Assembly (NCBI GenBank): GCA_020720625.1
Contig: DYOH01000009.1
Coordinates: 7,057-71,056, forward strand
Length of the DNA: 64,000 bases
Source of the DNA: Acetofilamentum sp.
Lineage (GTDB): Bacteria > Bacteroidota > Bacteroidia > Bacteroidales > DYOH01
Direction: 5' to 3'
Shown: one piece after another, positions 4,948 through 17,057 of the stretch
How positions within the stretch are numbered: position 1 is the first letter of the stretch
Layout: each line of letters begins with the position of its first letter
Notes under the pieces: model-generated
Database searches by the model: none
What the model saw: only the letters and a program-made list of their open reading frames with translations
Told to the model about the DNA's origin: nothing
Translations under genes and position numbers: made by a program

Positions 4948-6012
4948 TTACTTATTTTTCCAGACATCCAAAAAAACAGGCAAATGATCGGCATAGCCTC
5001 CGTGATAACTTTGCCCGATATAAGTTCGGTTGGTAATATATCCGGTATAGTTTTTATCTACTTCGAGCAAATATGGTGCTGCAAATATATGTACGTCGTT
5101 TACACCGGTTCTGATCTTAGATTCCTGATTCAGCAATGTGCCCGAAACAATAAACTGATCGAGCACTCCCCATTCACCATCGTGCTTATGCGAACCTATT
5201 TTGCCAATGTCTTGCAGGTACGACGACAAATTATACAAATTTTCGGACCTGATATCATCAAAACTCCTTTCTGCCATCAAAGCCTCTGTAAGACTAATAT
5301 TATATGGATAATCGTTTAAATCGCCCATAATAACAATATTTGGATTTCTATCGGCCAGGTAAATAGAATCTACCGTTTTTCTCACCACAGAGGCTACATA
5401 CACCCTCCTACTCTCCGAATTCATCTGGCCGCCCCATCTGCTTGGCCAGTGGTTCACAAAAAAATGGAAAGTATCGCCAGCAGCTGTGCCTGCCTTTACA
5501 TACAAAATATCGCGCGTTTTGCTACCGGGTGCATCCGGAAAAACAATGGCTATGGGCTGAACTTTTATGGGATATATTTTTGATTGATTGTAGAGCATTG
5601 CCACATCAATGCCCCTATTATCGGGCGATTCGAAATGTAGTACAGCATAATCGCTATTCCATAAATGGGTTTTCTTTAATATGTCTTCTACCACTTTTCG
5701 GTTTTCAACCTCGCATAAACCCACCACATCGGGCAATTGCCAGCCACCAACTGCAGTAATTACTTTTGCCGTATTTCTTAATTTTGCATAATACTTATAT
5801 GTGCCCCAATAACGACCTCCTTCGGGCAAAAATTCTTCATCTGTTTTATCTGGCGTATCTATTGTATCAAACAGATTTTCAACATTATAAAACATAAACC
5901 GATAATCGCCTCTCTCGGGCAATTCGTAAGTTATTTCTTTTGATATTTTCTCAAAGAAATTACATCCGAAGAATAATATACTCAGCACTATAACAAAAAT
6001 ATACTTTTTCAT
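4948..6012 (-). CDS. Endonuclease/exonuclease/phosphatase (EEP) family lipoprotein
   Basis: Lipoprotein signal MKKYIFVIVLSILFFGC; motifs YNVENLFD, CEVEN, NHWPSR, GDLND and GGYADHLP; -7 box TATTTTTG at 6042-6049 (minus). Confidence 0.88.
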   Translation of the reverse strand: MKKYIFVIVLSILFFGCNFFEKISKEITYELPERGDYRFMFYNVENLFDTIDTPDKTDEEFLPEGGRYWGTYKYYAKLRNTAKVITAVGGWQLPDVVGLCEVENRKVVEDILKKTHLWNSDYAVLHFESPDNRGIDVAMLYNQSKIYPIKVQPIAIVFPDAPGSKTRDILYVKAGTAAGDTFHFFVNHWPSRWGGQMNSESRRVYVASVVRKTVDSIYLADRNPNIVIMGDLNDYPYNISLTEALMAERSFDDIRSENLYNLSSYLQDIGKIGSHKHDGEWGVLDQFIVSGTLLNQESKIRTGVNDVHIFAAPYLLEVDKNYTGYITNRTYIGQSYHGGYADHLPVFLDVWKNK

Positions 6013-6154
6013 ACTACAACAAAAGGGGTTGATAATTACCGCAAAAATAAGATAATGTTGAAAAGAAACGCAAAACAACTTTCAAAACATGGCATTTTTA
6101 ATTGATTTATCATAAAAATGTTGTAAATTATTCAGGCAAACAAAATCTTAAACC

Positions 6155-8227
6155 ATGAAAAAGCAAATAAATCCTTCAAAAACAACCCTATTACATCATA
6201 TTCAAGCATTTTCGGCTGGTGAAAGAAAATTCGAAAATATTTACGAATCCTTGGTGCGAATGATTCTGGGAGACACCAAACAAATAAAAAAAACTTTCGT
6301 AAACGGCAAATCTTTATACGATTACGAAGTATTACGACAGGGCAAACGCCATATAATTGGCATGTACGAAGAGATAAACAGTTTTGTGTCGTTTATTAAA
6401 GACGCTGCCGAAGGTGGTTCATCAAAAGAAATGGCCTTTGTTTTAATTGGTGAACCCGGAAACGGTAAAACATTTTTTGTAGATTATCTGGGCGCACTAT
6501 ACCGCGATTTTATTGCCTTGCCAGAAAACAGCCGTTATAGTTTCCGCTTTAAAAATCTGGATAAATTGGGTGGATACGGTAAAATTACCACCATGGAATC
6601 GCAAACTTATGAAGATCCAATGATTCTGGCCATGAATATTTTTGATGAAACATCGCTTAATATAGACTTGCTCGAAAAATGGAAACTACAGAGCGAACAA
6701 ATTGAAAAAATATATAAAAACTATCGCCCATTAGGCGCTGATTCTTATTTTATCCTAAATCAAATTAAAGAATACATTCAGGATGATATTTCGCAACTAG
6801 ATGAATTTGTAGAGATTTATAAGGTTCCCATTAGCGAATCCCGCGGAACACTTACGGGAAAATATGCTGCTAAAGACAAAATTACTTCGTCGGCGGTAGA
6901 TCTGCTTGGCGACGAAAGTATTACCCGTTTGCTCCATATCTCCGACAGCAGTAATCCCTATAGATTTGATTTGCGAAGAGGAGCCCTTGCCAGAGTTGCC
7001 GGTGGCGGTATTCATTTTGCTGACGAAATTTTTAAAAATAAGCGCGACTTGGTTCAAATTTATCTTGGCGTAATTCAAAACAGAACCATTGAGATGGAAG
7101 GATACAAATGGCCGCTCGATACTTTAATTGTGGCTACCAGTAATAACGCCGAGTTTGGCCGTTTTCTCGAAGAAAAAGAACAGGCTCCTATTGTTGATCG
7201 ATGCCGTCTGGTGTATATGTCGCACAATACCAATTACTTACTACAAGAAAAATTAACCCGCTATTCCATTGGTTCTCAACAAAAAACAACGCTTACCGGT
7301 CAAAAATTACATATAGACCCAAATCTAAACGCTGCAATCTCTGTATCTTTTATTCTTTCGCGCATGCCTCACCACGAAAAACTAAATCCGGTAGAAATGA
7401 TGAAACTATCGGCAGGTGAAGTGGCCGGCGAAAAAAGCATTCAAACCCTTAACGAAGTTATTAACGAATTAAACACCGACCCCGACATAACCAAACGATT
7501 TGGACAAAAAGGTCTGGGACACCGTAATTTGGGCCGTGCCATTCAGATGCTGCTCGAACGCTCCGAAACCCAGGAAGGACAATGCATGTACGCAGGTGAT
7601 GTTTTTGAAGCCATCGAAAAAGTTATTATTGATTATGTTCAGGATCCAAACGACAGAAACAAATACCTCGAAGATCTTAAATTGGCCAGAAAACTTCATC
7701 GAAAAAATATCATGACTGCCATTTTTAATGCCTATATGAATGAGCCTGATGCCATTGAGAAAGATGTGCTCAACTACGTGAATATGATTATCGGTATTGA
7801 TGCCAAAAATCTGGGAAGTGATAAAATCTGGACTTACAAAGACCCGCAAGCAGGAAAACTAATCTCCATAAAAATTGATGAAACATTTATAAACAGTGTG
7901 GAAGAACGAATGGGTTTAAAAACCTACGAACAAAAACAAAGTTATAGAACAACCATTGCCAAAATCTATGGGCAGAAAATGATTCAGGACAGAAACTATA
8001 CCTTTATGGATAATAACGATTTGGTGAAAGCTGTTACTGATGTGCGCCTAAAATCGGATATTGCCGGAGCCGGAAGTTTGGTGGGTGCTTTATCGAACAG
8101 AACCAACGAAGACAATCAAAGGCTTTACAACCGCATGATAGATACCATGATAAACAAATTGCACTATTGTAATACCTGCGCACAAAAAACCATAGAATAT
8201 TTTTGCACACAGGACGATGCAAATTAA
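6155..8227 (+). CDS. prkA: PrkA/YeaG-family AAA+ ATPase ('serine protein kinase'), paralogue 1
   Basis: Walker A GEPGNGKT, Walker B IHFADE, ATSN sensor, DRC arginine finger, C-terminal HYCNTCA typical of PrkA; followed by yeaH and spoVR homologues. Confidence 0.88.
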   Translation: MKKQINPSKTTLLHHIQAFSAGERKFENIYESLVRMILGDTKQIKKTFVNGKSLYDYEVLRQGKRHIIGMYEEINSFVSFIKDAAEGGSSKEMAFVLIGEPGNGKTFFVDYLGALYRDFIALPENSRYSFRFKNLDKLGGYGKITTMESQTYEDPMILAMNIFDETSLNIDLLEKWKLQSEQIEKIYKNYRPLGADSYFILNQIKEYIQDDISQLDEFVEIYKVPISESRGTLTGKYAAKDKITSSAVDLLGDESITRLLHISDSSNPYRFDLRRGALARVAGGGIHFADEIFKNKRDLVQIYLGVIQNRTIEMEGYKWPLDTLIVATSNNAEFGRFLEEKEQAPIVDRCRLVYMSHNTNYLLQEKLTRYSIGSQQKTTLTGQKLHIDPNLNAAISVSFILSRMPHHEKLNPVEMMKLSAGEVAGEKSIQTLNEVINELNTDPDITKRFGQKGLGHRNLGRAIQMLLERSETQEGQCMYAGDVFEAIEKVIIDYVQDPNDRNKYLEDLKLARKLHRKNIMTAIFNAYMNEPDAIEKDVLNYVNMIIGIDAKNLGSDKIWTYKDPQAGKLISIKIDETFINSVEERMGLKTYEQKQSYRTTIAKIYGQKMIQDRNYTFMDNNDLVKAVTDVRLKSDIAGAGSLVGALSNRTNEDNQRLYNRMIDTMINKLHYCNTCAQKTIEYFCTQDDAN

Positions 8228-8271
8228 CCAATTTTAAACGAATTAAATCTTTGGAAGCGGAGGATTTCAAA

Positions 8272-9594
8272 ATGGAAAATAATCCAAAAAATAAGCTGAG
8301 CGAAGATAGCATATCAAGGGAACTGAAAATGAACGAAAGCACTCAAATTCATTTCGATAGTTCTTTCTACCTGGAACTATATATGACCAATGATTTTGAA
8401 GTGCTACAATCTTTCAATCATCCACATTTATCATCTCAAACAAATCTGAAAACACTCGACGAGTTGCTCGAAAATGATAAACTTAGAACGAAAGATGGTT
8501 TTAGTTCCCGAATAAGGCTGGGTAAATTAGTAAAACCACTGCCAGGAAATAAAACTCAGGTGGTGGTTGTGCCTACAACTACCGAACCAAAATTCTACCA
8601 CGATAATTCCATCACCACCGAAGAGCAATCTACCGGTGGAAGTGGTGAGGGCGAAGAAGGAGAAATTATTGCCAAAAAACAAGCCAACCCACAGCAAGGT
8701 AAAGGCGATGGCTCCGGACCCGGACAAGGAGAAGGCTCCGACCACGAAGTAGGAACAAATGCCTACGATCTTGGGCGAATTCTGACTGAAAAATTTCAAC
8801 TCCCAAATCTTAAAATCAAAGGCAACAAAAAATCGCTCACCAAATTTACCTACGATCTTACAGATATTAATCGGTCTTTTGGTCAGGTACTTGACAAAAA
8901 ACTAAGCTTACGAAACATAATTAAAACCAACATTTTATTAGGAAATCTCGATCCGGAGCAAAATTTTTCGCCCGAAAACCTTATTATTAACCCCAAAGAT
9001 CAAATTTATAAAATTCTATCGCGTGAAAAAGATTTCGAAGCACAGGCAGCCGTTTTTTTTATCCGCGATTACTCGGGTTCCATGTCGGGCAAACCCACAG
9101 AGGCAGTTACTACGCTGCATCTGCTCATCTACAGTTGGCTTATGTATCAGTATCAGAATAATGTTCTTACACGTTTTATTGTGCACGACACAGCAGCCAA
9201 AGAAGTGCCCGATTTTTATAGCTATTATAAATATCAGGTGGCTGGAGGAACCAATGTTTATCCGGCATTTGAACTCGCAAACAAAATTGTAGAAATGGAA
9301 CAACTAGGCAAAGACTACAATATTTATGTTTTCTATGGCACCGATGGCGATGATTGGGAAAGCAGTGGCGAAAAAATGATTAATGCTTTGCGTGTTATGC
9401 TTAAATACGCCAACCGAACAGGCATTTGTGTTGCCCGAAACGGCTGGACAAACGGAGATACAACAATAGAAAAATACTTAAAAAATTCTGGCTTGCTTGC
9501 CAAGGAACCCCAATTTTTGCGTCTCGACCATTTCGAAGCAAACAGCTATACCCAGGAAGTTCTCATTGAGACCATAAAATCATTAATAAGCTAA
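8272..9594 (+). CDS. YeaH/YhbH (DUF444) vWA-domain protein
   Basis: Gly-rich linker (GGSGEGEEGE...GKGDGSGPGQGEG), LPNLKIKG, MIDAS-like RDYSGSM, GGT and TDGDDW; start at MENNPK is preceded by GGAGG. Confidence 0.88.
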   Translation: MENNPKNKLSEDSISRELKMNESTQIHFDSSFYLELYMTNDFEVLQSFNHPHLSSQTNLKTLDELLENDKLRTKDGFSSRIRLGKLVKPLPGNKTQVVVVPTTTEPKFYHDNSITTEEQSTGGSGEGEEGEIIAKKQANPQQGKGDGSGPGQGEGSDHEVGTNAYDLGRILTEKFQLPNLKIKGNKKSLTKFTYDLTDINRSFGQVLDKKLSLRNIIKTNILLGNLDPEQNFSPENLIINPKDQIYKILSREKDFEAQAAVFFIRDYSGSMSGKPTEAVTTLHLLIYSWLMYQYQNNVLTRFIVHDTAAKEVPDFYSYYKYQVAGGTNVYPAFELANKIVEMEQLGKDYNIYVFYGTDGDDWESSGEKMINALRVMLKYANRTGICVARNGWTNGDTTIEKYLKNSGLLAKEPQFLRLDHFEANSYTQEVLIETIKSLIS

Positions 9595-9598
9595 AAAT

Positions 9599-10492
9599 AT
9601 GGCACTTAATCAATCAACTGTAAATCATGAAACATGCAAGGCATGTGCATATTGCGCAGATATTTGCCCAAATATGCTTCTGGAATTATCAGATGAAAAA
9701 AAAATTATTTTTAAATCCGACTTTCAAAACTTATGCATAATTTGCGGTCATTGTATGGCTGTGTGCCCTACTAATTCGATCCAGATTGAGGGTTTGAATT
9801 ACGAAACTGATTTTTTTCCTATTGACCCAAAAATAAAAGAAACGGACAGCTTTCAGAACATCATTAAGAAACGAAGAGCAGTTAGACTTTTTAAAGACAA
9901 AGCCGTTCCAAAAGAATTACTTGAAAAAATTGCCATTGCCATGACTTTTGCCCCCGTTGGATTTACACCTTCGATGCTCCATTTTCAGGTGATTTCTAAT
10001 CAACAAAAAATAAAAGAAGCTTTACCGGGGATGTTAGCTATTTACGAAAAATTTATTCGCATGATGAAAAATCCCATTATCAGGTATTTTATCAGAAAAA
10101 GTGCCGGTGAAGAAAATTATCTTAGCCTAAAAGACCATGTTATACCTATACTTAAAGCAAAAATGCCGGCCATAAAAAAAGATGGCCTTGACCCAATTTT
10201 CAGAAATGCTCCGGCAGTGATACTTATTCATGCTTCAAAAAAAGCAGCCAGCGTTACCGAAGACGGACTAATTGCCCTTAGCTATGGTTTTTTAGCTGCC
10301 GAATCTCTCGGACTAGGCACCTGCCCCATTAGCCTTATTCCACCGGCATTGAATTACGACGAAAAACTTAAACAAATTTTCGGAATACCCCCTGAAAATA
10401 AAGTAATAAGCTCATTTATAATAGGTTACCCAAAATATAGACTTAAAAAATCAATTTACCGCAAGGTACAAGAAATCAATTATGTAAGCTAA
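9599..10492 (+). CDS. Nitroreductase family protein with N-terminal 2x[4Fe-4S] ferredoxin domain
   Basis: CKACAYCADICP and CIICGHCMAVCP ferredoxin motifs; RRAVRLFKDKAVP, AAESLGLGTC and IGYP nitroreductase motifs. Confidence 0.9.
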   Translation: MALNQSTVNHETCKACAYCADICPNMLLELSDEKKIIFKSDFQNLCIICGHCMAVCPTNSIQIEGLNYETDFFPIDPKIKETDSFQNIIKKRRAVRLFKDKAVPKELLEKIAIAMTFAPVGFTPSMLHFQVISNQQKIKEALPGMLAIYEKFIRMMKNPIIRYFIRKSAGEENYLSLKDHVIPILKAKMPAIKKDGLDPIFRNAPAVILIHASKKAASVTEDGLIALSYGFLAAESLGLGTCPISLIPPALNYDEKLKQIFGIPPENKVISSFIIGYPKYRLKKSIYRKVQEINYVS

Positions 10493-10523
10493 AGCAGCTC
10501 CTTCTTTTACAAAAAAATAGATT

Positions 10524-12119
10524 ATGAAACTGATTGATCAGCATACAAAAAAAATAATGGAAGAATGCAAAAGCAGAGCCCGCGACCATGGTCTGAAATT
10601 CGACAACCAAACGCTGGAGTATATTGTGAGTAACCGCGATATGATTTTGCTTTCGCCCAAAGGAATGATACCAACACTCTACGATTACTGGGTAGACGAT
10701 GTGGAGGTGCTGAAAAAAGAAGGCGAGTACAAACTTTATCCGTCAAATCCATACGAAACTGTTATTAATACACGTCCGGCTGTTTCTTTTTACAACGACA
10801 ATAATCCGGATTGGATGAATATCATGATTTTTTATCATGTATTGGCACACATCGATTTTTTCCAAAATAATATATTTTTTCGTCAAACATGGGATTATGA
10901 TTTTGCAGGAAAAGCGCTTTCCGGCAAAAGATTACTCGATAGTTTGCGCAGCGAGCATGGTCGATGGGTAGATTACGTTATAGAATTTGCCCGAGCCATT
11001 GATAATTTGGTTGGATATCATTCCAAAAATGCTGCATTTAGGTTCTCTACCCGGCTAGAAACTAGTCCTGAAATTAATTTTTACTTTCAGGTATTTCTTC
11101 AAGAACTTATTAAAGTGCCTGAGCACATTATTTATAAAGAGGTAGAAAAATACAACGAATTTTTGATGCAAAACAGCACTCTGGGCGAAAAACTATTTTT
11201 GGCCGAGGTAAAAAGAAAATTTCCGGAATTCGATTCAAAATTTAAAAAATATTTGCCAAAAAAAGAAAGAGAACCGGATATTATCGAATACATTGTTCGG
11301 AATTCAGCTTTTTTAAACAAAGATCAAAACAAATGGATGAATCAGGTAATTGAAATAGTGCACGAAACATCGCTTTATTTTGCTCCGCAGATAAGAACCA
11401 AAACCATAAACGAGGGATGGGCAAGCTATTGGCACGATTACTTGTTCCGCAAAGATGAAAGAATTAGCGGTCACGAAAGTGCTTATGCTAAAACAAATGC
11501 AGCAGTTACATCGATAAACCGAATCGGATTAAATCCGTATGCTGTTGGTTTACGGCTATTTCAGCATATCGAAGAGATGGCCGATAAGGGGCAATCGGGC
11601 TACGATTATCAAAAATTGCGGAACAAACAAGAACGCGAAAATTTCGATAAAAACCTAAATAAAGGTAAGGAAAGCATTTTCGATGTGCGCGAAAATTTTA
11701 ACGATTTCATGCTCTTTAATACCTTTGTAAATCAAGACTTTACAGACAAGCATAAACTTTTTACCGTTGGAAAAAGACTCAATGAGCAACAAGGTGTGGT
11801 AGAATACTTTATAAAAAGCAAAAAAGCAAACGATTATAAACAAATGCTAATTAATTCGCTCTATCATCCGCCATATATCATTATAAACAAAGAACATACA
11901 AACGAGAATAATCTGTACCTGCAACATCAGTTCGAAGGCAAACAACTTTATCAGGATTTTATTCCGGATACCTTGTTGGCCATATCGTTTTTATGGGGAA
12001 ATCAGGTTCAACTGGAAACTACAGAAATTCTTAAAAAGCAAAATCAGTCGGCGGATTTTCGACGAGTTATCTACACTGTTAAAAATAAGCAAATTACTAA
12101 AGTTTTAGTTTCAAAATAA
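10524..12119 (+). CDS. spoVR: SpoVR/YcgB family protein
   Basis: YETVINTRP, HVLAHIDFFQNN, YFAPQIRTKTINEGWASYWH and NPYAVG are SpoVR signatures. Confidence 0.92.
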   Translation: MKLIDQHTKKIMEECKSRARDHGLKFDNQTLEYIVSNRDMILLSPKGMIPTLYDYWVDDVEVLKKEGEYKLYPSNPYETVINTRPAVSFYNDNNPDWMNIMIFYHVLAHIDFFQNNIFFRQTWDYDFAGKALSGKRLLDSLRSEHGRWVDYVIEFARAIDNLVGYHSKNAAFRFSTRLETSPEINFYFQVFLQELIKVPEHIIYKEVEKYNEFLMQNSTLGEKLFLAEVKRKFPEFDSKFKKYLPKKEREPDIIEYIVRNSAFLNKDQNKWMNQVIEIVHETSLYFAPQIRTKTINEGWASYWHDYLFRKDERISGHESAYAKTNAAVTSINRIGLNPYAVGLRLFQHIEEMADKGQSGYDYQKLRNKQERENFDKNLNKGKESIFDVRENFNDFMLFNTFVNQDFTDKHKLFTVGKRLNEQQGVVEYFIKSKKANDYKQMLINSLYHPPYIIINKEHTNENNLYLQHQFEGKQLYQDFIPDTLLAISFLWGNQVQLETTEILKKQNQSADFRRVIYTVKNKQITKVLVSK

Positions 12120-12128
12120 GCTACAACG

Positions 12129-14432
12129 ATGAACAAAAATAAGCCTTTCAGGCATTTATCCATAGAGGAGAATCCGGAAATTGCGCAAAAATTAAGCACC
12201 TTGATGCGAAATTTAAGCGATAGCCTGCTCGATAGCACAAAAGTACCCTACAGTTTTCACGATTTTATTTTTCAGTTATCGAGAACTCCAAATCTTATTC
12301 TTCGCGATAGTTTTCAGTTATTTACCGATATGGTAAATCATTACGTAAAAAAAGAGAAAAACGAAGAAAAACTTAGTTTCCGCGATTACAACACGGCCGG
12401 ATTATTTATCAAAAATACTGAAAATCCGTTTTTTGCAGACAATATGTTTGCCAATAGATTTATGGAGCTAACCAAAAGTATGCGCAAAGGCATGCAAACA
12501 AACCGCATATTCCTATTTGAAGGCCCGCCGGGAAGCGGCAAAAGCACATTTTTGAATAATTTGCTCGACAAGCTCGAAGAATACACCGAAACCCCCCAAG
12601 GAATTATGCTTTCAACGGTTTGGCATATCCATTTAAAACAATTAGGAAAAATCTCGTTATTTGAACAAAAATTAAGAGAAATTGCTGAAAAATCGTGTGA
12701 TACAGAATTAAAACAATTTCTGAGTTCCAACGAATTTCTAAAAATACAAAATAAAAGCGATTTCCTTGAAATCAGTTGCCCCTATCACGACCATCCGATT
12801 ATTCAAATTCCAATACATATACGTAAAGAATTTTTAGACACAGTGATTGAAGACCAGAACTTTAAGGACCGGCTTTTTAACGACAGGCAATACGATTGGG
12901 TACTTAAAGAAAAACCATGCCACATTTGCTCTTCCATTTACGATAGTTTATACGACGCGCTTAATAGCCCCGACGAAATACTACCGATGCTGCATGCTCA
13001 GGTTTTTACATACAACCGAAAATACGGTAAAGGAATAACCGTTTTTAATCCCGGAGATCCTATTATGAGTCCTTCTATAGAAAACTCAGCCATGCAAAAC
13101 AAACTGCATCAATTGTTTAGCAACGATAAAATAAGATTTGTATACTCGCCTCTGGCCTATACAAACAATGGCGTTATGGCTATTATGGATGTGAAAGAAA
13201 ACAATATACACAGACTAAAAAACCTCCATTCTACTATCTCCGATGGAATTAATAGGGTTGATATGTTCGAAGAAAGAATAAGTACCCTGTTTTTAGGTGT
13301 AATTAATCCGGAAGATAAAGCCCACTATGCCAATTTAAGCTCGTTTCAGGATAGAATAATTACTATAAATATACCATACACTCTTGATTACGAAACTGTT
13401 GTAAAAATTTACAAAAACAAATACGGAAATAAAATAGGCGAACACTTCTTACCCGGAGTTTTAGATAACTTTGCCCGAATTATAGTTTCTACCAGATTAG
13501 AGGAAACCAAAGCCATTAAAAACTGGATAAAAAACCCAAAAAATTACAAATTTGCCGACGATAAATTGTTTTTAGTTAAAATGGAAATCTATACCGGAAC
13601 TATCCCAAATTGGCTTACCGACGAAGATAAAAATAATTTTACCAAAGAAATAAGAAAAGAATTGCTTGATGATTCAGCTTTGGAAGGATTAAAAGGCATT
13701 TCGGGACGAAAAGCCCTCAATATTTTTAATACCTTCTTTACCAAATATACAGCACGACAAGGAATGCGCATTACCATGGACGAAGTAATTGATTTCTTTA
13801 CCAAGGAAAACCCGGATTTAAAAGAGCTTATTCCTCCCAATTTTCTGGAAGCACTTACCCGACTTTACGATTATTCGGTTCTTCAACAAGTTAAAGAATC
13901 TATTTATTTCTTTAATACAGAGCAAATTGGAAGAGATATCAAAAATTATCTGTTTGCCATTAATTTCGATAATCAACAATCGCTGGTTTGCCCCTATACC
14001 AACGATAAAATTTTGATAAACGAAGATTTTTTCAAAAATTTTGAGGCCATTTTTTTAGGTACTCTCAGCAAACCAGATGAACGCAAAAAGTTTAGAGAAA
14101 ATACTTTAAAAGAATATATCAGCAAAACACTGAGCCAGGAAATGAATGTGGATGCTAAAGAAATTGGCGATACACTTCAATACAAATATCTTTTTGCTCG
14201 TTACACAGCCAATTTGAAAGAACATGCCCTGGCTCCATATTTAAATAATGCCAATTTTAGACGAGCAATTTTGGATTATGGCGAAAAGAAATTCCAAAAT
14301 TACGACGAAAGGCTCAAAACAGATGTTTGTAGGCTGATAAACAATCTCAAAAAAATACAAAATTATTCAAAAAAAGGTGCACAACAGATATGCATATATG
14401 TAATAGACAAAGATTTAGCAAAAAAATACTAA
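12129..14432 (+). CDS. PrkA-like AAA+ protein, paralogue 2 (degenerate Walker B)
   Basis: Walker A GPPGSGKS, CPYHDHP and CHIC motifs, FQDRI, IPYTLDY, EGLKGISGR; the apparent Walker B reads AIMDVK. Confidence 0.8.
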   Translation: MNKNKPFRHLSIEENPEIAQKLSTLMRNLSDSLLDSTKVPYSFHDFIFQLSRTPNLILRDSFQLFTDMVNHYVKKEKNEEKLSFRDYNTAGLFIKNTENPFFADNMFANRFMELTKSMRKGMQTNRIFLFEGPPGSGKSTFLNNLLDKLEEYTETPQGIMLSTVWHIHLKQLGKISLFEQKLREIAEKSCDTELKQFLSSNEFLKIQNKSDFLEISCPYHDHPIIQIPIHIRKEFLDTVIEDQNFKDRLFNDRQYDWVLKEKPCHICSSIYDSLYDALNSPDEILPMLHAQVFTYNRKYGKGITVFNPGDPIMSPSIENSAMQNKLHQLFSNDKIRFVYSPLAYTNNGVMAIMDVKENNIHRLKNLHSTISDGINRVDMFEERISTLFLGVINPEDKAHYANLSSFQDRIITINIPYTLDYETVVKIYKNKYGNKIGEHFLPGVLDNFARIIVSTRLEETKAIKNWIKNPKNYKFADDKLFLVKMEIYTGTIPNWLTDEDKNNFTKEIRKELLDDSALEGLKGISGRKALNIFNTFFTKYTARQGMRITMDEVIDFFTKENPDLKELIPPNFLEALTRLYDYSVLQQVKESIYFFNTEQIGRDIKNYLFAINFDNQQSLVCPYTNDKILINEDFFKNFEAIFLGTLSKPDERKKFRENTLKEYISKTLSQEMNVDAKEIGDTLQYKYLFARYTANLKEHALAPYLNNANFRRAILDYGEKKFQNYDERLKTDVCRLINNLKKIQNYSKKGAQQICIYVIDKDLAKKY

Positions 14433-14533
14433 AAAAAGAAACGGAAAATTTAAAATGAATATTTTTTTCCATTTTCAGCATGTTTTACACCAGGAAATAA
14501 AGCAAAAGCCATTTTATTATTGCTCAAATATGC

Positions 14534-14541
14534 TATTTTTG
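14534..14541 (+). promoter_or_regulatory. Bacteroidota -7 box (TATTTTTG) for mutS2-tamB
   Basis: TAnnTTTG 17 nt upstream of the GTG start. Confidence 0.5.
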
Positions 14542-14558
14542 TCTAAAACTTAAATAGT

Positions 14559-17057
14559 GTGATTTATCCAAAAAATTTCGAAGAAAAACTGGGTTTCGAC
14601 CAAATAAGATTACTCTTAAAACAGCACTGCCTAAGCAATCTGGGAAAAGAACAGGTAGATGAAATGCGTTTTATGACCAAACATGCCAATATTGAGAAAC
14701 AAATAATATTGACAGAAGAATTTAAACATATTCTGATGTTTCAATCAGATTTTCCTACATCCTATTTTATAGACCTTCGCCAGGCACTAAGTAAAATACA
14801 TATAGAAGGCACTTTTTTAAGTCAAACGGAACTTTTCGATCTTAAAAAATCGCTTTCGACTATAAAAGATATTGTACAATTCTTTAAAAATACAAAGGAA
14901 GAATATTATCCGGAACTCAAAAAAATAGCAGCCCAATTTAATCTATATCCCTTTATTTTTCAACGAATCGAAAGCATTTTAGATAAATATGGCGATATAA
15001 AAGATAGTGCATCTGCAGAACTTGCCAGAATAAGAGCAAGTTTGCAATCTAAACGCAATGCCATTTCGAGGCGTGTACAATCGGTTTTGCGAAAAGCTCA
15101 GGAAGAAGGAATTGCAGAGAGCGATGCCGAAATAACCATTCGCGATGGCAAAATGTTGATTCCCGTTTTGGCTACAAACAAGCGAAAAATTCCGGGCTTT
15201 ATCTACGACCAATCGGCTACCGGAAAAACATTTTTTATTGAACCAGCCGAAGTAATCGAACTTGATAACGAAATAAGCGAACTTGTTTATGAAGAAAGAA
15301 GAGAGATTATCAAAATACTTACCATCTTTTCCAACGAACTCCGACCCTATTTGCCAGAACTACAAGTATCTTATCAAACTTTAGGCGTTTTCGATTTTAT
15401 CAGAGCAAAAGCACTTTATGCCATTAACATTGATGCCGTAAAGCCGCTTATCATGGAAAATAAACCTTGGCTAAACTGGCAAAATGCAAAACATCCGGGA
15501 TTATTGCTTACCCTGAAAAAAGAAAAACGCGAAATTGTGCCACAAGATTTGTTTTTTACCGAATCAAACCGAATTATTCTTATTTCCGGACCAAATGCAG
15601 GAGGTAAATCGGTATTGCTAAAAACCGTAGGCCTTATTCAATACATGTTTCAATGCGGATTGCAAATTCCTGTCGGACATAATTCCGAAGCCGGTATTTT
15701 TGAGCATATTTTTATAGATATTGGCGACGAACAGTCTATTGAAAGCGATTTGAGCACTTACAGCTCACATCTTATCAATATGAAGCATTTTTTAAAACAT
15801 GCCAATGATCAAAGCATTATTCTAATAGATGAGTTTGGTACCGGAACTGAGCCGCTTTTGGGTGGAGCAATTGCCGAATCTGTTTTGGAACAGCTTAATA
15901 ATCAAAAAACTTATGGAATAATTACCACACACTATACCAATTTAAAGCACTTTGCCGGAAATACCGAAGGTATAGTAAACGGCGCAATGCTCTATGATTT
16001 ACAAAACCTCGAACCACTATACAAATTGCGTGTAGGAAGCCCCGGAAGTTCTTTTGCTTTCGAAATTGCCGGAAAAATTGGACTGCCTCGGGAGATTATT
16101 GAAAAAGCTTCTGCAAAAATCGGCATAGAACATGTAAACTTCGACAAAAACTTAAAAGCCATTGAACGCGACCGTGCTTATTATCAGGAAAAAAGAAAAA
16201 GTATTAAGCTACTCGAAAAAAAGCTGGAAAAAAAAATGGCCAAACACGATGAAATGATGGAAAAAGAGCTAAATCAACGAAAAAAAATAATTGATGATGC
16301 TAAATCCGAAGCCCAAAGTTTTCTAAAAGATTTGAACAAAAAAATAGAAAATACCATTTTTGAAATTCGACAAGCACAAGCCGAGAAAGAAAAAACCAAA
16401 GTGCTTCGAAAAGAAATTGAACAAATAAAAGTGCAGGCAGAAAATTCGCTATTGGAACAAGAAGATGCAGTGCTAAAGAAAATGGAAAAACTGCGCAAAA
16501 AACAGCTTGAGAAAGCCCAAAACAAAAAAAACAATCAACAGAAAAATCAAAATACAGTTGAGCACACTGAAACTGATATTCAGGAAGATAAAAAACCCGA
16601 AGTTGGCGACAACGTTAGAATTTACGGTCAGGACAGCACTGGCATTATCGAAGAAATAAAAAATAAAACAGCTTTGGTAAATTTTGGAAGCGTTAAAGCA
16701 TTTATTAGTTTAAAAACCCTCGAAATAATTAAAAAACAAGTACAAACTAATCATAAACAACCAAAAATAGCTTTTAAACTTTCGGATACCGACCAAACAA
16801 AGAGCATATTTATGTTCGGATTAGATGTTCGCGGAAAAAGAACCGACGAAGCCCTAAGTGCTGTGGCCAAATATATGGACGAAGTAATTGTGAATCAGGC
16901 TTCCGAAGTTAAAATTCTCCACGGAACAGGGAATGGAATTTTACGACAATTTATTAGAGAATATTTGCAAACAGTAGATTTTGTAGTTTCGGTAAAAGAC
17001 GAAAAAGTAGAACTTGGCGGCACCGGAATTACCGTAGTTAATTTAAAATATCGCTAA
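14559..17057 (+). CDS. mutS2: Endonuclease MutS2 (Smr-domain ribosome-collision/anti-recombination factor)
   Basis: SGPNAGGKS Walker A, DIGDEQSIE, DEFGTGT, coiled coil, KOW region, C-terminal Smr (LDVRGK...ILHGTGNG). Confidence 0.95.
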   Translation: MIYPKNFEEKLGFDQIRLLLKQHCLSNLGKEQVDEMRFMTKHANIEKQIILTEEFKHILMFQSDFPTSYFIDLRQALSKIHIEGTFLSQTELFDLKKSLSTIKDIVQFFKNTKEEYYPELKKIAAQFNLYPFIFQRIESILDKYGDIKDSASAELARIRASLQSKRNAISRRVQSVLRKAQEEGIAESDAEITIRDGKMLIPVLATNKRKIPGFIYDQSATGKTFFIEPAEVIELDNEISELVYEERREIIKILTIFSNELRPYLPELQVSYQTLGVFDFIRAKALYAINIDAVKPLIMENKPWLNWQNAKHPGLLLTLKKEKREIVPQDLFFTESNRIILISGPNAGGKSVLLKTVGLIQYMFQCGLQIPVGHNSEAGIFEHIFIDIGDEQSIESDLSTYSSHLINMKHFLKHANDQSIILIDEFGTGTEPLLGGAIAESVLEQLNNQKTYGIITTHYTNLKHFAGNTEGIVNGAMLYDLQNLEPLYKLRVGSPGSSFAFEIAGKIGLPREIIEKASAKIGIEHVNFDKNLKAIERDRAYYQEKRKSIKLLEKKLEKKMAKHDEMMEKELNQRKKIIDDAKSEAQSFLKDLNKKIENTIFEIRQAQAEKEKTKVLRKEIEQIKVQAENSLLEQEDAVLKKMEKLRKKQLEKAQNKKNNQQKNQNTVEHTETDIQEDKKPEVGDNVRIYGQDSTGIIEEIKNKTALVNFGSVKAFISLKTLEIIKKQVQTNHKQPKIAFKLSDTDQTKSIFMFGLDVRGKRTDEALSAVAKYMDEVIVNQASEVKILHGTGNGILRQFIREYLQTVDFVVSVKDEKVELGGTGITVVNLKYR

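Follow-up and report, generated by a model that had tools for sequence, protein, structure and literature searches.

A conserved four-gene prkA-yeaH-spoVR-prkA core in Bacteroidales, with SpoVR as a candidate zincin-fold component

Two genes for PrkA-family AAA+ ATPases bracket an operon in a stretch of 64,000 nucleotides from Acetofilamentum sp. (contig DYOH01000009.1, positions 7,057 to 71,056), here called the window; between them lie genes for the vWA-type protein YeaH, a nitroreductase and SpoVR. We wondered which of these five genes form a unit, what their products might do together and where the operon came from. The conserved unit comprises four genes, prkA1-yeaH-spoVR-prkA2, without the nitroreductase. 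Judged by sequence, the operon is a variant subfamily of the known PrkA/YeaG-YeaH-SpoVR module. The reading that we favour, tentatively and with slightly less than even confidence, is that the four-gene core makes one ATP-driven protein-degradation machine for starvation, with the nitroreductase as a passenger. The five open reading frames at 6155-14432, all on the + strand with gaps of 44, 4, 31 and 9 nt, agree with the original prediction, and so do the families assigned to the five products, all of which match Pfam above cut-off. Both PrkA products match PF08298 and PF06798; no other PrkA-domain match occurs in the genome.

To what extent is this arrangement shared? Search of GTDB-type genomes with a PrkA1 alignment gave at least 330 loci, of which the best 80 were mapped, so distant phyla are under-sampled. 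The genes prkA1-yeaH-spoVR-prkA2 are complete and in order in 54 of the 80; of the other 26, most run into the end of a contig, a few being genuinely split. The best 80 loci come from Bacteroidales, other Bacteroidota, Ignavibacteria, Desulfobacterota, a spirochaete, Fibrobacterota, KSB1 and Krumholzibacteria. Of 35 host-order loci centred on spoVR, 23 proved complete; the two sets overlap and their counts are not additive. Strong matches were detected in 42 of 400 host-order genomes (SpoVR query, one weak row dropped) and in 4 of 400 genomes of the phylum (PrkA1 query, one canonical-type row dropped). Within the host family, one of three other genomes (78-91% complete) has the operon. The four-gene type is present in 17 of 250 Desulfobacterota, and 19 more carry only other PrkA types. 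Plasmid search yielded two weak canonical-type matches only, and a contig search with PrkA2 alone as query gave no relative.

The nitroreductase behaves differently from the core. It lies inside the operon only here and in G002, a genome of another genus of the same family, and is absent from all other loci holding both yeaH and spoVR in two surveys (62/62 and 27/27). Nitroreductase homologs occur elsewhere in 52 of 400 host-order genomes; ten genomes possess both operon and homolog, and in all ten the two are unlinked, being on another contig or about 0.8 Mb apart. Metagenome search with the nitroreductase retrieved three distant loci at 24-28% identity. Given these absences and the missing linkage, the five-gene system that had been proposed is not borne out, and the nitroreductase is likely a lineage-restricted passenger, one more insert in an operon gap. 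That it is instead a functional fifth subunit coupling the module to redox or nitrosative stress appears very unlikely: its short gaps (4 nt and 31 nt) and its retention in the second genus, at 50% identity where the neighbours show 67-84%, would suit such a role, as would the homologs present in 10 of the 42 operon carriers, where 52/400 predicts about 5 (a count in which kin are not independent), but both surveys and the unlinked homologs speak against it, and the gaps that hold it here carry unrelated short inserts in many genomes. The nitroreductase is probably co-transcribed with the core and may be co-regulated via the shared transcript.

Intergenic gaps of the operon are a hotspot for insertion of small mobile-looking genes. 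Unrelated short genes are often found there (L014, L018, L039, L059, L069, L123, L126, L135-L138, L145); judged by eye from their sequences, they resemble proteins of toxin-antitoxin, four-helix-bundle, methylase and secreted kinds.

We then compare the operon with described systems. E. coli yeaG(spdA)-yeaH with ycgB and B. subtilis prkA-yhbH with spoVR encode the same three Pfam families, and canonical-type operons share with the window the metal-ion-dependent adhesion site (MIDAS) as well as the E, HxxxH, NEG and Y motifs of SpoVR. The canonical E. coli and B. subtilis systems possess a single PrkA, whereas two prkA genes bracket the window operon. YeaH and SpoVR of the window are only 19-29% identical to canonical-type rows, and all four proteins form separate long-branch clades. 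Walker B is ExxE in canonical PrkA, in contrast to DE in PrkA1 and MD in PrkA2. The canonical equivalogs NF011999, TIGR02877 and NF008737 were missed by wide margins (30 vs 576, 123 vs 468 and 85 vs 679 bits), which argues that the window proteins belong to a distinct subfamily. Its YeaH is already catalogued, since the window protein exceeds the cut-off of NCBIfam NF003712 (568 vs 421 bits), a model named PRK05325.2-4, hypothetical protein, that carries neither function nor operon. Two PrkA paralogues, always together with DUF444 and SpoVR, are described also for a haloarchaeal cluster (PMC3102087); there the prkA genes are adjacent, while in the window they flank the operon. With this published case and a spread over several phyla, the two-ATPase version is not the rarity it had been taken for.

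The two ATPases differ at the catalytic site. PrkA1 contains Walker A (G99-T106), a classical DE Walker B (D290-E291), sensor 1 N330, arginine finger R349 and sensor 2 R457, none of which varies in any of 106 sequences; a second set of 120 likewise shows no change in Walker A, DE, R349 or R457. It is the slow-evolving copy, with 59-84% identity across mapped loci; the range for PrkA2 is 37-67%. In PrkA2, Walker A, sensor 1, arginine finger and sensor 2 are intact and Walker B reads M353-D354, without the catalytic glutamate. This MD is invariant in 84/84 and 120/120 sequences, and its aspartate aligns to the glutamate of Protein Data Bank (PDB) entry 9xip and of canonical rows. Single-PrkA operons have ExxE at this site (20 of 22 rows); the two exceptions are second-copy PrkAs belonging to a different type, likewise with aspartate at Walker B, and one of them comes from the full four-gene operon L174. 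We infer that PrkA1 would hydrolyse ATP, while PrkA2 would bind it, provide an arginine finger and hydrolyse poorly, both within a mixed ring. The two proteins align by BLASTP in short weak segments only (best E 0.01), and each falls in a long-branch clade of its own, with no support for how the two clades are related; they are thus not products of a recent duplication.

PrkA2 has three cysteines (C217, C264 and C267, at 12777-12929) that are invariant in 84/84 sequences, along with a common H220. They match cysteine motifs of 9xip and likely build a structural zinc site in the AAA+ insert. Entries 9xip, 9xiq and 9xir contain a 692-aa PrkA-family protein, in 30 chains in all, which resembles PrkA2 (E 1.6e-14) more than PrkA1 (E 1.4e-9); our literature search found no paper for these entries.

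For SpoVR, a clue to function came from its predicted fold. An AlphaFold2 model built from 93 sequences (predicted local distance difference test, pLDDT, 89.8; predicted template-modelling score 0.83) was aligned by VIA-align with 48,161 PDB chains. By their titles, 49 of the 50 top rows are zincin/gluzincin-fold proteins, with a best Z of 10.9, and nearly all cover SpoVR from the N-terminus to about residue 400-445. Among these rows are the DUF885 protein 3o0y (Z 10.9, root-mean-square deviation (rmsd) 3.6, 185 aligned residues) and the M1 aminopeptidase 6oiu (Z 10.4); leukotriene A4 hydrolase (Z 9.9) and thermolysin (Z 7.7) are also present, and the sole unrelated row has Z 5.7. Candidates of Foldseek, when realigned, reached at best Z 7.0 (a homologue of angiotensin-converting enzyme) and 6.6 (collagenase). 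A search of viral structures brought up a phage 'zincin protease' at no better than E 0.15, sequence and profile searches of SpoVR gave no peptidase link and ESM Atlas no usable match.

M1 peptidases are characterized by an edge-strand glutamate, HExxH, NEG and the tyrosine of YxxG. Conservation in SpoVR was examined in the best 150 of 3,444 representatives obtained by 50% clustering. Five residues are invariant where covered: E78 (141/141), H105 and H109 (145/145 each), E297 and Y339 (146/146 each). These we take to resemble the M1 set minus the general base. In the model, H105 and H109 lie on helix 96-115 and E297 on helix 293-309; the three are putative zinc ligands. Position 106, where HExxH has its glutamate, is occupied by valine in 117 rows, alanine in 16, cysteine in 9 and other small residues in the rest; glutamate is never among the common residues, and V106 is found in 93/93 members of the closer set. 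The zincin fold is credible because the match list is uniform and the motif evidence is independent of it. With gluzincins (M1 aminopeptidases, DUF885, M3, M4, M30, M32), SpoVR thus has in common the predicted fold, the HxxxH helix, a downstream NEG glutamate and the tyrosine; it differs in the absent HExxH glutamate, in identity of just 6-13%, in a large helical insert and in a C-terminal alpha/beta domain. The literature searched contained no paper that connects SpoVR with zincins; supplements, clan annotations and the 9xip paper were outside this search and could already note it.

Relatives of SpoVR contain inteins at three sites, beside E78, H109 and E297. Proteins longer than 800 aa make up 19 of the 150 representatives. 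From 18 hand-picked long relatives, 15 match Intein_splicing, and two more show a LAGLIDADG domain only or neither. Intein-bearing proteins, many with LAGLIDADG, include P0378, P0385, P0403, P0411, P0420, P0435, P0452, P0473, P0487, P0507 (two inteins), P0375, P0410, P0472 and P0475.

The MIDAS of YeaH (D266-x-S268-x-S270, T327, D358) is invariant in 98/98 sequences, and also in 83/83 that include 15 rows from canonical-type operons; this supports the pairing of an AAA+ ATPase with a vWA partner that had been anticipated for this locus. The VWA_CoxE family is matched by the window YeaH below cut-off (E 0.011) and weakly by 11 of 83 members. Complex prediction for SpoVR, YeaH 56-440 and zinc scored 0.77, against 0.00 for the best control; at least 92% of contacts recur between runs and the partner has pLDDT of at least 66. 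Of 157 solved complexes 116 attain this mark, as do 2 of 215 mismatched pairs, a calibration that is roughly applicable here. PDB search found no sequence-level relative of SpoVR or YeaH. The predicted interface is formed by YeaH 58-138 and not by the vWA domain; on the SpoVR side it includes residues 331-336, adjoining N337-Y339. YeaH position 108 is F or L in 68/68 sequences and F in 15/15 canonical-type rows. The prediction supports, but does not show, binding of SpoVR by this YeaH arm. AAA+ rings with a MIDAS adaptor are known from RavA-ViaA and CbbQ-CbbO, and ATPases coupled to a peptidase from FtsH and Lon. In contrast to MoxR/vWA pairs, FtsH and Lon, motor, adaptor and putative peptidase of the window are separate chains, and the AAA+ domain is of the PrkA family.

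What might the four products do together? Non-specific breakdown of protein in starving E. coli requires YeaG according to PMC13684143, whose main text does not contain the words 'ycgB' and 'SpoVR'. Cofitness of yeaG, yeaH and ycgB in six bacteria is reported in 10.1101/072470. For PrkA of B. subtilis, ATPase but no kinase activity is described (PMC9512850). That of B. anthracis is stated to have no protease activity when highly purified, the earlier weak activity being traced to a suspected contaminant (PMC13001217). Starvation proteolysis is thus driven by YeaG, but PrkA from one species is without protease activity when pure, so that SpoVR becomes a testable candidate for the peptidase. Literature, fold and complex predictions together make PrkA as motor, YeaH as adaptor and SpoVR as peptidase the most economical model. 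PrkA1 and PrkA2 would form the AAA+ motor, and YeaH would be a vWA-type adaptor holding SpoVR, its MIDAS domain engaging ring or substrate by analogy with vWA partners of MoxR-type ATPases. SpoVR, as a gluzincin-fold zinc protein, would cut peptides: H105, H109 and E297 would bind zinc, Y339 would stabilise the transition state, and the part of the missing general base would fall to E78 or to a residue contributed in trans. By analogy with E. coli YeaG, the physiological role would be protein recycling in nutrient exhaustion. The protein-remodelling role suggested in the original prediction is supported. In a more far-reaching form, which we consider possible and rather speculative, PrkA/YeaG-YeaH-SpoVR would represent an unrecognised class of ATP-dependent protease and the missing protease of starvation-induced global degradation, with SpoVR as zinc peptidase with a rewired site (E78 or a base in trans), tethered by the YeaH arm to a mixed AAA+ ring of catalytic PrkA1 and hydrolysis-impaired, regulatory PrkA2.

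Several observations weigh against such a degradation machine. Every SpoVR examined is devoid of the general-base glutamate of HExxH, which is the usual mark of pseudo-peptidases, and inactive M1 homologs (TFIID entries 6hqa and 5fur) match the model as well as active ones do. VIA-align values (Z about 11, rmsd 3.6-4.6, for a largely helical model) stay under the caution mark of the tool at about 13, and Foldseek with the same model returned no PDB match at E<=0.001. The AlphaFold2 model of PrkA1, from 14 close sequences, has pLDDT of only 47. ExxE of canonical PrkA is unusual and yet belongs to an active ATPase, so MD in PrkA2 need not mean inactivity. Casein degradation is reported for B. 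subtilis PrkA itself in PMC9512850, and the functional data are drawn entirely from operons of other phyla that have one PrkA.

The main rival is a catalytically dead SpoVR; it has to be taken into account because none of the 145 SpoVR rows has the HExxH glutamate, though we find it less likely than not. The assembly would be the same and SpoVR would serve as a substrate receptor that binds zinc and peptide ends, while the machine would either unfold or tag proteins that Lon/Clp-type proteases then degrade, or act on a specific complex to remodel it. Presence of inactive M1 homologs among the fold matches fits this, as does general knowledge of MoxR/vWA systems, which are chaperone-like and not proteolytic; E78 and Y339, in contrast, are as invariant as the metal ligands, beyond the need of a pure scaffold, and inteins concentrate at the motifs of the site. 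Alternatively, PrkA itself could be the effector, either a Ser/Thr kinase in signalling or a self-contained Lon-like protease, with YeaH and SpoVR as regulators. A kinase model exists for E. coli YeaG (PMC4664914; 10.1101/072470; 10.64898/2026.07.20.739708) and the casein hydrolysis would suit a protease, but we judge this option improbable, as kinase activity is reported absent from the PrkA proteins of B. subtilis (PMC9512850) and B. anthracis (PMC13001217), the latter being without protease activity when pure, and neither window PrkA has a match to kinase families beyond the name of the PrkA C-terminal family.

Acquisition of the operon from anaerobic neighbours such as Desulfobacterota had also been proposed as a possibility, for a host placed in Bacteroidota. 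The placement holds, since named close homologs indicate Bacteroidales. To estimate the origin of the operon, a SpoVR tree of all 117 rows was constructed by FastTree, and IQ-TREE (quick search, LG+G4, no mixture model) was applied to hand-picked subsets of 40 rows (SpoVR) and 36 rows (four proteins). In the 117-row tree most same-family genomes cluster, and Desulfobacterota form a separate clade with a few nested outsiders. The four-protein tree places the window as sister to G002, then family f122, within an 18-row, mainly Bacteroidales clade that is separated from Desulfobacterota with support 100. Forcing the window and G002 among Desulfobacterota changes log-likelihood by -510 units and is rejected by the approximately unbiased (AU) test (p=0.0006). 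GC content at third codon positions (GC3) and codon usage of the operon are inside the range of the genome itself, and the genes upstream of the operon are the same in G002. Taken together, these results do not support recent transfer from Desulfobacterota, which we regard as scarcely credible and, as a recent event, largely refuted. The four-gene type shared with Desulfobacterota and its patchiness in Bacteroidota would agree with such transfer, some loci labelled as non-Bacteroidota nest inside each clade, implying that transfers do occur, and the AU test on SpoVR alone fails to reject the Desulfobacterota grouping (p=0.059); PrkA1, on the other hand, is closer to Bacteroidales (71-84% identity) than to Desulfobacterota (62-69%). 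An ancient transfer may have gone in either direction, since the branch that carries the root is very long. The best fit is a long-standing presence in Bacteroidales followed by many losses. Vertical and widespread inheritance in Bacteroidota, named in advance as refuting the proposed acquisition, thus applies in part: descent looks vertical within Bacteroidales families, whereas distribution is patchy in order and phylum alike.

Coordinates of the genes are given in Table 1. For yeaH, an alternative TTG start lies upstream at 8203 and would overlap prkA1. Single contigs from further DNA runs, labelled as cave, biofilm and soil metagenomes, span each of the four junctions, and an artefact of assembly can therefore be dismissed. 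In four other DNA runs the nitroreductase-spoVR gap measures 32 nt, due to one extra T at 10504; this non-coding position reflects either a strain difference or a homopolymer error of the assembly. Spacing of the five genes suggests their co-transcription. The downstream neighbour is on the same strand and starts 126 nt past prkA2; a sequence scan found no terminator-like site in this 126-nt stretch. Counts of promoter-like and terminator-like sites are at shuffle level (34 vs 29.1 and 7 vs 8.5), and Rfam search of 5600-14700 gave no match.

Table 1. Features of the operon, in positions of the window
Feature	Position	Strand	Details
prkA1, PrkA/YeaG-family AAA+ ATPase	6155-8227	+	690 aa; Pfam PrkA and AAA_PrkA
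yeaH/DUF444, vWA-type protein with N-terminal arm	8272-9594	+	440 aa from ATG; PF04285
YeaH residues 58-138, predicted SpoVR-binding arm, F108 at core	8443-8685	+	complex prediction
4Fe-4S-dicluster nitroreductase-family flavoprotein	9599-10492	+	297 aa; Pfam Nitroreductase and 4Fe-4S domains
spoVR/ycgB, predicted gluzincin-fold protein	10524-12119	+	531 aa; PF04293
prkA2, second divergent PrkA-family AAA+ protein	12129-14432	+	767 aa; Pfam PrkA and AAA_PrkA

Some further loci depart from the common arrangement. prkA1 or spoVR stands alone in several of the stretches inspected (L024 of genome G294, L037, L060, L078; L122, L132, L142, L152, L154), so the operon can be split. Apparent fusion of PrkA1 and YeaH in L147 proved to be an assembly N-gap. 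L174 (G824:C1:1558000-1577000), from a genome of the Desulfobacterota group, contains at 5031-12645 a second, very divergent type of prkA-yeaH-spoVR-prkA2 operon; its second PrkA has 830 aa and aspartate in place of the Walker B glutamate, and its SpoVR and first PrkA are on long branches. A viral protein of 617 aa (BFVD A0A3Q8HYQ4) matches the SpoVR model at E 6e-10, and some phages may carry the module, as SpoVR and PrkA are mentioned in a jumbo-phage paper (PMC8504454).

The locus itself, with its host, nitroreductase and supposed origin, is ordinary; its value lies in a residue-level test of the cutting protein. According to recent work, starving E. coli depends on YeaG for bulk proteolysis and for much of its RpoS-dependent survival. 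SpoVR, which has five invariant residues at its putative site and a predicted tether to YeaH, is a specific candidate for which the exact residues to mutate in laboratory strains can be named. The two-PrkA variant, in which ATP hydrolysis and binding appear separated by sequence, would help to dissect the motor.

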